A stretch of DNA of 64,000 nucleotides from Candidatus Bathyarchaeota archaeon (GTDB lineage Archaea > Thermoproteota > CALKCG01 > B24 > DRYS01). The notes below the pieces were generated by a model, which worked only from the letters and a program-made list of their open reading frames with translations, was not told where the DNA came from and ran no database searches. The position numbers and the translations under genes were made by a program. Below, piece after piece: positions 12,226 to 40,509 of the stretch (within the stretch, counting starts at the first letter, position 1; each line of letters begins with the position of its first letter). The stretch is taken from the NCBI GenBank assembly GCA_018396535.1, contig JAGTQC010000006.1, forward strand, positions 29,047 to 93,046, given 5' to 3'.

Positions 12226-13290
12226 ATGACTCTGCTAGAGCTACCGGTTGTTAGGAAAGCTAAGCTTCAAGAAGCGTTAGGCGATGGTAGAGTTAAATGT
12301 ATGCTTTGCGAGAGAAAATGCATAATCCATGACGGTGGTAGAGGCTTCTGTAAAACCAGGATTAACATAGCTGGTGAACTCTATACGATAGTCTATGGGG
12401 ATATAAACGCTATATCAGAGAATCCTATCGAGAAAGGGGGTTAACCCCCCTCGATAAAACCCTTCTACCACTATTGGCCTGGTACTATAGCTTTAACATT
12501 CTCTACTTGGAGCTGTAACTTTCCATGTCCATGGTGCCAGAATTGGCATTTATCCAAACTAGAGCCTAACCCATATAGAGCGAACTATATATCGGTCGAT
12601 AGGATGGTGGATCTAGCTGTTAAATCTAGATGTAGAGGTTTATCTGTATCGTTTACAGAACCCACACTCCTCTTCGAATACTGTCTAGACCTATTCCCTC
12701 TAGCTAGATCTAGAGGATTATACTGCAATTTTGTTTCAAACGGTTATATGACTCTAGAAGCTTTACGTATGCTGGTAGAAGCTGGTATGGATGGGCTTAA
12801 GATAGATGTGAAGGGGTGTAGCAACTCTGTTCGTAGATACTGTTTAGCTGATATCGATGTATGTTGGAGGAATGCCTCTAAAGCTTTAGAGATGGGTGTA
12901 CATGTAGAGATAGTGAATCTAGTAATACCTGGCGTAAACGATTCAGAAGAGTGTATAGAGGAGGTTTGTAAAAAGCATATAGAGAGTGTAGGTGATGAAA
13001 CACCCCTACACTTCACAGCCTACTATCCAGCTTATAGATTCACCAATCCTCCTACACCAGTATCCAAGTTGGAGGAGGCTTATAGGATAGCTAAAGGTTA
13101 TGGGTTGAAATACGTGTATATAGGTAACGTACCTGGGCATCCATACGAGAATACATACTGCCCTGAATGTGGTGAACTACTTATAAAACGCTACGGTTTA
13201 ACATTGATATCTGTAAAACTTACGAAGGATAAGAAATGTCCTAGATGTGGTTGTAGCATACCTATAAGAGGAGATATACACACTATCTAG
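12226..13290 (+). CDS. amrS: AmmeMemoRadiSam system radical SAM enzyme (PFL-activating-enzyme-like), interrupted by a candidate 21-nt intron: join(12226..12434,12456..13290), 347 aa
   Basis: N-terminal CxLCxRxC...GFCxxR. CNFPCPWC at 12514-12537, between the two track ORFs and in the same frame. TEP, SNGY, IDVK, HFTAYYPAY, YVYIGNVPG, TYCPECG, CPRCG. Single in-frame TAA at 12442-12444. Confidence 0.88.
12435..12455 (+). other. Candidate archaeal pre-mRNA intron with bulge-helix-bulge-type motif
   Basis: CGAG/AAA/GGGGG-TTAA-CCCCC/CTCG/ATA. Cutting after nt 2 of each 3-nt bulge removes 21 nt and yields ...ATC GAG AAA AAA CCC TTC (IEKKPF). Confidence 0.75.
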
Positions 13291-13299
13291 GAGTGGTAG

Positions 13300-14157
13300 A
13301 TGTCTAAGCGATTCAGGGATAAGCTTATAGATAGGTTAGGTTTATCGAAAGCTAACGCTATATCATCTAGCTATGATGTTATAGGTGATATAGCTGTTAT
13401 AAGGGTTCTTAAACCTGGGGTTCTAAGCGATGAAGATTATTATACCATAGCTAATATAATATTCGATTCTAATCCTAGGGTTAAGACTATACTACGCCAG
13501 GATAGCCCTGTAGAGTCTCCTCTAAGGATTAGACGTCTAACATTCATAGCTGGTGAGAAGCGTACTCTAACTATACATAGGGAGTATAGATGTAGTTTTA
13601 AAGTAGATCTATCTAAAGTATTCTTCTCACCTAGGCTATCCTATGAAAGAGTTAGGCTAGCTAGCTTAGTGAGAGAGGGCGAGTATATAGTTAATATGTT
13701 CTCAGGGGTAGGCTGCTTCTCCATATCGATAGCTAGATTAGCGAAGCCTAGAGCGGTATATTCGATAGATATCAGTAAGGATGCGTATGTACTAATGAAG
13801 GAGAATGTATATATAAATAATGTAGAGTATACGGTTATACCTATCCTAGGTGATGCTCGTCAAACGATCGAATCGAGGTTGAGATACATAGCTGATCGTG
13901 TAATAGAACCTCTACCAGATTTAGCGTATGCATACCTAGATGTAGCTTTAAAAGCTTTAAAACCTGAAGGCGGATGGATACACTACTACAGTTTTATACA
14001 TGTGAAGAGTATGAGCCTAGACTACGAGGTTTGTAGAATTAAAAAGAGGATAGGAAGGTATGGGTGGATTGCTAAGTATGCTAAAGCTAGGATTGTTAGA
14101 AGCGTCGGTCCTAACTGGGTTCAATCAGTCGTAGATCTATACGTATCTAAGATCTAA
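13300..14157 (+). CDS. Trm5/Taw2 family SAM-dependent tRNA methyltransferase
   Basis: YDVIGDIAV, T.HRE..C.F.VD..KVFFSPRL..ER, MFSGVG.F, G.IHYY. Confidence 0.85.
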   Translation: MSKRFRDKLIDRLGLSKANAISSSYDVIGDIAVIRVLKPGVLSDEDYYTIANIIFDSNPRVKTILRQDSPVESPLRIRRLTFIAGEKRTLTIHREYRCSFKVDLSKVFFSPRLSYERVRLASLVREGEYIVNMFSGVGCFSISIARLAKPRAVYSIDISKDAYVLMKENVYINNVEYTVIPILGDARQTIESRLRYIADRVIEPLPDLAYAYLDVALKALKPEGGWIHYYSFIHVKSMSLDYEVCRIKKRIGRYGWIAKYAKARIVRSVGPNWVQSVVDLYVSKI

Positions 14158-39517: not shown

Positions 39518-40509
39518 TATATCTCCCCCTTCAACCCTCTGACAGCTGTAGCCATACCGCCGTATAAGCCTATATCTGCACCTAAAGGTGTTATAGCTAT
39601 GCGTGGAATCCTATTAACTGTATACATACCAATCCATCTCTCTATGTAGGGTAGAACTAGGTCAGAGTTATAGAGAGCTATAGATCCTCCTATCGTTATA
39701 AGCTCAGGATCGTAGACGTTAACTATAGATGCGAAACCCATAGCGTTTATCTTACCTACTTCTTCTACTATCATACTGGAGAATCTATCCTTACTTCTAG
39801 CTAGATCGTATACAAGCTTAGATGTAATATGATCGATACAACCGTTAGTCTCTCTAAAGAGTAGACTTGAACTCCATAATTCTCTTCGATTCTCAGCTAG
39901 GAGCTTCGCATACTTCGGTATACCTGAACCAGAACAGTATGCCTCCCAGTGACCTCTACCTCCACATCCACAGATAAGTCTTCCATCTATATCGACGACT
40001 ATATGGCCTATCTCATGAGCATTTCCATCCTTTCCTTTTAATAGGTTTCCATCTACTATGGCTCCTCCACCTATACCAGTACTAATAGTTACGTATACAA
40101 GGTTTCCTACACCTACACCGAGACCGAATGTATATTCAGCTAGAACAGCTGCGCTAGCATCATTAAGTATGAATACAGGTGTATCGAATTCATCTTCTAT
40201 AGGCTTCTTTAAAGGTATTCTTTCGATGCGTTTTTCCATAGCTAGATTAGCTACGTTGAATAATTCACCCTTCCTCATATCCATAGGCCCTATCGTAGCT
40301 ATACCTATAGCTGATAGGTCTTTCACCCCGTATCTGCTCATAATGATTCTAGATAACTTGATGACTTGGAGGGCTAAATCTAGGCTATCCTTGAGCTTAA
40401 CGGTGCGTTCTGTGATCTTATCGATTAGTTTTAATCCATCTGTTAAAGCTACCCTTATATTGGTAGCGCCTATGTCTACTGCGATTATAGGTTTATCTAT
40501 ACATGTCAT
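39517..40509 (-). CDS. ROK family sugar kinase (glucokinase-like)
   Basis: DIGAT, NDA, TGIGGG, EIGH, CGCG..GHWEAYCSG. Confidence 0.92.
   Translation of the reverse strand: MTCIDKPIIAVDIGATNIRVALTDGLKLIDKITERTVKLKDSLDLALQVIKLSRIIMSRYGVKDLSAIGIATIGPMDMRKGELFNVANLAMEKRIERIPLKKPIEDEFDTPVFILNDASAAVLAEYTFGLGVGVGNLVYVTISTGIGGGAIVDGNLLKGKDGNAHEIGHIVVDIDGRLICGCGGRGHWEAYCSGSGIPKYAKLLAENRRELWSSSLLFRETNGCIDHITSKLVYDLARSKDRFSSMIVEEVGKINAMGFASIVNVYDPELITIGGSIALYNSDLVLPYIERWIGMYTVNRIPRIAITPLGADIGLYGGMATAVRGLKGEI

Follow-up and report, generated by a model that had tools for sequence, protein, structure and literature searches.

A 64,000-nucleotide (nt) stretch of contig JAGTQC010000006.1 (the window), belonging to a 93%-complete, 1.41-Mb genome of an uncultured Candidatus Bathyarchaeota archaeon from a hot spring, contains a gene for a radical SAM enzyme that is interrupted by a short insert. 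Two open reading frames (ORFs), 12226-12444 and 12604-13290, lie in the same frame in the translation of the window, and 12226-13290 as a whole forms one reading frame with a sole lesion of 21 nt (12435-12455), in which the only internal stop, TAA 12442-12444, is found (...PIEKGG-stop-PPSIKPFYH...). The CxxxCxxC motif (CNFPCPWC, 12514-12537) is located between this stop and the next in-frame ATG at 12604. Deletion of the 21 nt gives ...PIEKKPFYH... and a protein of 347 amino acids (aa), and a 72-aa peptide is the maximum product of the unspliced RNA. The first-pass annotation of this DNA, which had proposed a bulge-helix-bulge (BHB) intron at this place, described the sequence correctly: the two ORFs share one frame with the cysteine motif between them, every element of the fold CGAG/AAA/GGGGG-UUAA-CCCCC/CUCG/AUA is present where it was placed (with a perfect 14-nt palindrome inside the insert), and the in-frame, stop-free product reading IEKKPFYH after excision was reproduced.

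In NCBIfam, the two halves of the gene fall on contiguous positions of profile TIGR04337 (AmmeMemoRadiSam system radical SAM enzyme), hence the insert sits where the family profile is continuous. With the TAA alone left out of the translation, the gene scores 239.3 bits against this profile (238.3 in the genome search), above the curated cut-off of 220 bits, which neither half reaches alone. Its earlier designation as amrS is sound as far as the radical SAM family and the intact CxxxCxxC are concerned, but a second TIGR04337 paralogue in the genome is intact and scores higher, at 305.8 bits. AMMECR1 is also encoded, on a different contig from the radical SAM gene, and a search of the 93%-complete genome found no Memo homologue.

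Relatives were searched with exon 2, and exon 1 was placed by tblastn. The class comprises 16 species genomes, and the junction is assembled in 14 orthologues; family f4 has no assessable orthologue, with one copy cut by a contig end and one not found. Thirteen orthologues out of the 14, representing f1, f2 and f3 of the four families, carry an insert that splits the first Lys codon of IEKKP at the identical position, after its second base, and none of 78 homologues outside the class (other archaea and bacteria) has an insert. The inserts are 21, 20 and 23 nt long in the genus of the window, and 29 nt (seven species), 30 nt (one) or 33 nt (two) elsewhere in the class. Each of the 13 shifts the frame or contains a stop; ten shift the frame, and three inserts with lengths that are a multiple of three have an in-frame TAA or TAG. 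A single rule, a cut after the second base of each 3-nt bulge, restores PIEKKP and the frame in all 13 and at all six lengths, leaving GAG AAA AAR CCN (EKKP) each time, in agreement with the intron-less orthologues, which read PIEK-KP. On this comparison the intron is probably older than the divergence of f1, f2 and f3, with the lineage of genome G003, the single assessed orthologue without the IEK/KP insert, lacking it.

Anchored on the exon borders, all 13 inserts share four elements, namely the 4-bp helix, the AAA bulge, the inner hairpin and the second 3-base stretch. The central helix is CGAG/CUCG or AGAG/CUCU and is 100% paired in 13 of 13; its first pair is C-G in five sequences and A-U in eight, and lies at the synonymous third position of an Ile codon (AUC or AUA), with which the intron-side base changes in concert. 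The inner hairpin always starts with GG and ends with CC, is otherwise variable, and forms 3-10 contiguous pairs in every orthologue; within the genus, GGGGG/CCCCC is replaced by GGAGG/CCUCC. The second 3-base stretch (AUA, AGA or AAA) is single-stranded in the 4-bp register, but is not closed on its exon side, and the conserved U that precedes the helix can pair with the first A of the stretch. Covariation was evaluated on a MAFFT alignment of the inserts (A1) with 500 shuffles and slid controls. Paired cells amount to 97.3%, compared to 78% in shuffles and 42-56% in slid controls, seven of 12 pairs are changed on both sides (one in the central helix and six of eight in the inner hairpin), and the covariation score of 0.457 is matched by none of the 500 shuffles. 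For the insert in the window, the minimum-energy fold reaches z = -2.97 and is equalled by 2 of 200 shuffles. Same-site inserts with compensatory helix changes, which the first-pass annotation had suggested looking for, are thus found in nearly every orthologue that could be assessed.

According to a different reading, the gene has been split by the insertion, and two polypeptides (72 aa and a C-terminal piece) are made separately and then assemble. Gene callers do split the gene into 72 and 228 aa in every assembly, and an orthologue of the same genus is 278 aa long at NCBI. However, ATG 12604, the first in-frame start past the stop, is downstream of CxxxCxxC, so that a separate C-terminal piece would be devoid of the iron-sulfur ligands. 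In addition, such an arrangement offers no reason for a co-varying helix or for variable lengths that are always repaired by one rule, and we regard it as very unlikely.

The in-frame stop, the palindrome and the intact, higher-scoring paralogue would also suit an assembly artefact, or a pseudogene that arose through insertion of a short palindrome. The insert nevertheless persists over three families at an exon 2 protein identity of 63-88%, and the 13 species have no further frame lesions, apart from an intein in two. The ratio of non-synonymous to synonymous substitution rates (dN/dS) lies at 0.04-0.16 for most pairs, in exon 1 as well as in exon 2 (0.06-0.12 for exon 2), around 0.1 overall and not relaxed as expected of a recent pseudogene, which indicates that both exons are under purifying selection. 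Furthermore, five contigs, each from a different sample, agree in every base of the 1,065-nt gene including the insert (15 contigs are on record), therefore the insert is not an assembly artefact. Assemblies that contain the locus are JGI 3300000866 and 3300025090 as well as SRR21619494, SRR21619491 and SRR5468567. Of the explanations weighed here, a pseudogene or artefact is the least probable.

The gene content required for splicing by the tRNA-splicing machinery, on which expression of the gene had been proposed to depend, is present. The genome encodes RtcB and two EndA paralogues of 187 and 189 aa. The 187-aa protein has chain B of Aeropyrum pernix 3P1Z/3AJV as its best match and, by our reading, keeps the Tyr/His/Lys catalytic residues; the 189-aa protein, encoded on contig C1, lacks the His, and its best match is the EndA-like half of 5X89, with a further match to chain A of 3P1Z/3AJV. 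The predicted pair is of the (alpha-beta)2 arrangement, with one catalytic and one structural-type subunit, and endonucleases of this type are reported to cut relaxed motifs (PMC5829648, PMC4033280). The catalytic EndA gene lies about 2 kb from the only AMMECR1 gene of the genome (G000 contig C2: 6210-6773 and 8825-9358).

Four further inserts of 32-35 nt with the same helix-bulge-hairpin geometry are found in the genome, in cbf5 and in the genes of aIF5A, SAM synthetase and aEF-2 (Table 1), and under the cut rule each of these genes regains universally conserved motifs. The exons of these genes match the expected Pfam families where scorable, while two short first exons are without a match. 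Since the organism would be expected to depend on several of these genes for its survival, it is very probable that it splices mRNAs.

Table 1. Features of the interrupted radical SAM gene (window positions) and similar inserts in other genes of the same genome (G000)
Feature	Position	Strand	Remarks
Exon 1, from ATG up to and including base 2 of the split Lys codon (AA/A)	12226-12434	+	TIGR04337 positions 4-59
Central helix H, 5' strand CGAG, in exon 1	12429-12432	+	Pairs with 12450-12453
5' three-base bulge AAA	12433-12435	+	Predicted cut 12434/12435; invariant in 13 of 13 intron-bearing orthologues
Predicted 21-nt intron with in-frame TAA (12442-12444)	12435-12455	+	Same-site inserts of 20-33 nt in 12 other species
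Inner hairpin h' GGGGG/UUAA/CCCCC	12436-12449	+	GGGGG 12436-12440, TTAA loop 12441-12444, CCCCC 12445-12449; fold; double changes in six of eight aligned pairs
Central helix H, 3' strand CUCG, in the intron	12450-12453	+	Sequence and orthologue comparison
3' three-base bulge AUA	12454-12456	+	Predicted cut 12455/12456; first A can instead pair with U12428
Exon 2, from the third base of the Lys codon to TAG 13288-13290, including CxxxCxxC	12456-13290	+	TIGR04337 positions 60-330
cbf5 insert, 34 nt	L108:230-263		Outside the window; cut rule gives GHGGTL-D-P
aIF5A insert	L109:108-142		Outside the window; cut rule gives KPG-K-HG (hypusine site)
SAM synthetase insert	L110:1133-1167	minus	Outside the window; cut rule gives ER-K-GLGHPD
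aEF-2 insert	L111:2127-2158	minus	Outside the window; cut rule gives IR-N-IGIIAHVDHGKT

These additional inserts also bear on translational bypassing, in which the ribosome would take off at Lys AAA 12433-12435, skip the hairpin and land on the downstream AAA, without any splicing. The layout of the insert is compatible with this, with AAA codons on both sides and a stable hairpin and a stop between them, and superficially resembles phage T4 gene 60. However, landing on the AAA beside CCC would produce IEK-P, one residue short of every intron-less orthologue. Bypassing requires no 4-bp helix or 3-nt bulges with a co-varying helix, yet exactly such a geometry is conserved, and the inserts in the four other genes lack matched take-off and landing codons. 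To our knowledge, no bypassing has been described in archaea, and this explanation appears marginally less probable even than that of two separate polypeptides.

A motif scan of the genome, a kind of search that the first-pass annotation had also recommended, picked out these four protein genes, which are repaired by the cut rule, but the generic scan is not enriched. A loose motif has about 86,000 matches in the 1.41-Mb genome, and 3,503 remain with a stem of at least 5, a loop of at most 12 and a length of at most 70. Because the motif is so common, it is weak evidence by itself, and it is the overlap with a frame lesion together with conservation that raises the candidate above chance. At none of the stringencies did the genome scan find an enrichment of motifs whose excision fuses open frames over shifted-cut controls (2266 vs about 2200, 78 vs 68-77, and 49 vs 35-55), therefore it gives no intron count, and the intron candidates reported here are only those checked by protein motifs and families. 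A candidate within the window at 40001-40046 (minus strand) was rejected as a false match inside an intact 333-aa ROK-type gene.

Overall, it is highly probable that the radical SAM gene carries a 21-nt relaxed HBh' BHB intron that is removed from the mRNA. In the pre-mRNA, CGAG would pair with CUCG to form the 4-bp central helix, leaving the AAA bulge on the 5' side, the inner hairpin GGGGG-UUAA-CCCCC, and the AUA bulge on the 3' side. A heterotetramer-type (alpha-beta) tRNA-splicing endonuclease would then cut past 12434 and 12455, behind base 2 of each bulge, and RtcB would ligate the exons to create the predicted junction ATCGAGAAAAAACCCTTC. The resulting mature mRNA (...ATC GAG AAA AAA CCC...) would encode a 347-aa AmmeMemoRadiSam-type radical SAM enzyme with both PIEKKPFYH and CxxxCxxC intact. 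We infer the actual cleavage and ligation from sequence comparison, and the exact cut sites would follow from the canonical rule. The proposal of a spliced protein gene outside cbf5 is strengthened by the same-site inserts, covariation, frame restoration and low dN/dS, and the putative conserved relaxed BHB intron is in a host gene that is new for such introns.

Several observations weigh against this interpretation. The outer exon-exon helix, which had been noted as weak, is in fact absent in 13 of 13 intron-bearing orthologues, with one U-A pair at most, hence the motif belongs to the relaxed HBh' class and not to the strict hBHBh' class. The caveat that UAU may pair with the AUA bulge also proved justified: in the minimum-energy fold found in the genus, the helix is lengthened to 7 bp (UAUCGAG/CUCGAUA) and the 3' bulge is absorbed, thus a cleavable and a non-cleavable form must be in competition. 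As A residues repeat at both junctions, the frame would be preserved just as well if the two cuts were shifted equally. Owing to the intact, higher-scoring paralogue, the split gene is not demonstrably essential. Finally, exon 2 used as a query against the protein collection retrieved no nearly identical protein with a length near 347 aa, and the close relatives in the collection are shortened calls only, of 278 aa (88% identity) and 289 aa (65%). The same-genus NCBI orthologue P0003, from a Candidatus Bathyarchaeota metagenome-assembled genome (MAG), illustrates such mis-annotation, since the 278-aa 'radical SAM protein' consists of exon 2 alone, read from a spurious upstream start codon.

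Other interruptions are present in the same gene. The G003 orthologue has a different insert of 30 nt within CxxxCxxC (CP-W-C, L012:1577-1606), with the geometry GCCC/AUA/hairpin/GGGU/AAG, an in-frame TAG and a fold z of -2.99. The same cut rule applied here gives CCA UGG UGU (PWC), which suggests that the gene gained another intron independently, at a second site. The orthologues of G004 and G012 combine a 33-nt intron with an in-frame insertion of about 335 aa at CPW/C...HN/CQNW (L013:2236-3240, minus strand, and the corresponding position in L014). This insertion has a LAGLIDADG Pfam match, and its matches to intein-splicing Pfam families are below the cut-off; with both a predicted intron and a putative intein, the gene would need RNA splicing as well as protein splicing. 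Downstream, a TYW2/Trm5-family methyltransferase gene (window 13300-14157) begins 9 nt past the radical SAM gene. A functional coupling of the two was considered and rejected, the adjacency being confined to the genus (three loci) and absent from the 1.5-kb flanks in the other families.

A class-wide programme of mRNA splicing through tRNA-splicing enzymes, which would involve the radical SAM, aEF-2, aIF5A, SAM synthetase and cbf5 genes with introns gained and lost at differing sites, is somewhat favoured. If true, the expression of central functions would depend on endonuclease and RtcB activity, and could be regulated thereby. The presence of a class-conserved, co-varying intron in an unrelated enzyme gene, together with similar inserts in essential translation genes, suggests that mRNA splicing is routine in some archaeal lineages. 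Standard annotation splits or shortens the intron-bearing genes (72 and 228 aa, or 278 aa), therefore gene inventories and metabolic reconstructions are systematically wrong at these places.

With regard to known systems, the cbf5 intron was reportedly studied by Watanabe in 2002 and by Yoshinari in 2006. Endonuclease-dependent archaeal mRNA splicing has been published for cbf5 (PMC2738675) and HVO_1309 (PMC10485636) only, and the latter, a Haloferax case, adds to the first-pass annotation, in which cbf5 was given as the well-known example. The HVO_1309 mRNA of Haloferax volcanii is cut by the splicing endonuclease according to Schwarz 2020 (PMC7714728) as cited in PMC10485636, and the same 2023 review holds that further cases are probably still to be found (PMC10485636). 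A literature search retrieved no paper that joins AmmeMemoRadiSam with an intron.

The cbf5 intron of Desulfurococcales and Sulfolobales (Yokobori 2009, PMC2738675) is similar to the one proposed here in being lineage-specific, lost in some members and the cause of mis-predicted genes. The host in the present case is, however, a radical SAM enzyme instead of a pseudouridine synthase, the lineage is represented by MAGs that bear the label Bathyarchaeota, the intron has a smaller size (21 nt), and it is known from comparison of sequences, whereas splicing of cbf5 was shown experimentally. HVO_1309 shares with it the BHB motif in a non-cbf5 archaeal mRNA and the tRNA-splicing endonuclease, but there the organism is a euryarchaeon with a homodimeric alpha2 enzyme, the motif is canonical and the evidence is experimental, in contrast to the comparative evidence here. 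The inserts, with a size of 20-33 nt, are within the range of tRNA introns. In motif architecture, cut positions and enzyme type they are like the non-canonical (HBh'/BHL) tRNA introns of Crenarchaeota, except that the host is an mRNA, in which the reading frame, and not tRNA structure, limits where the cuts can fall.
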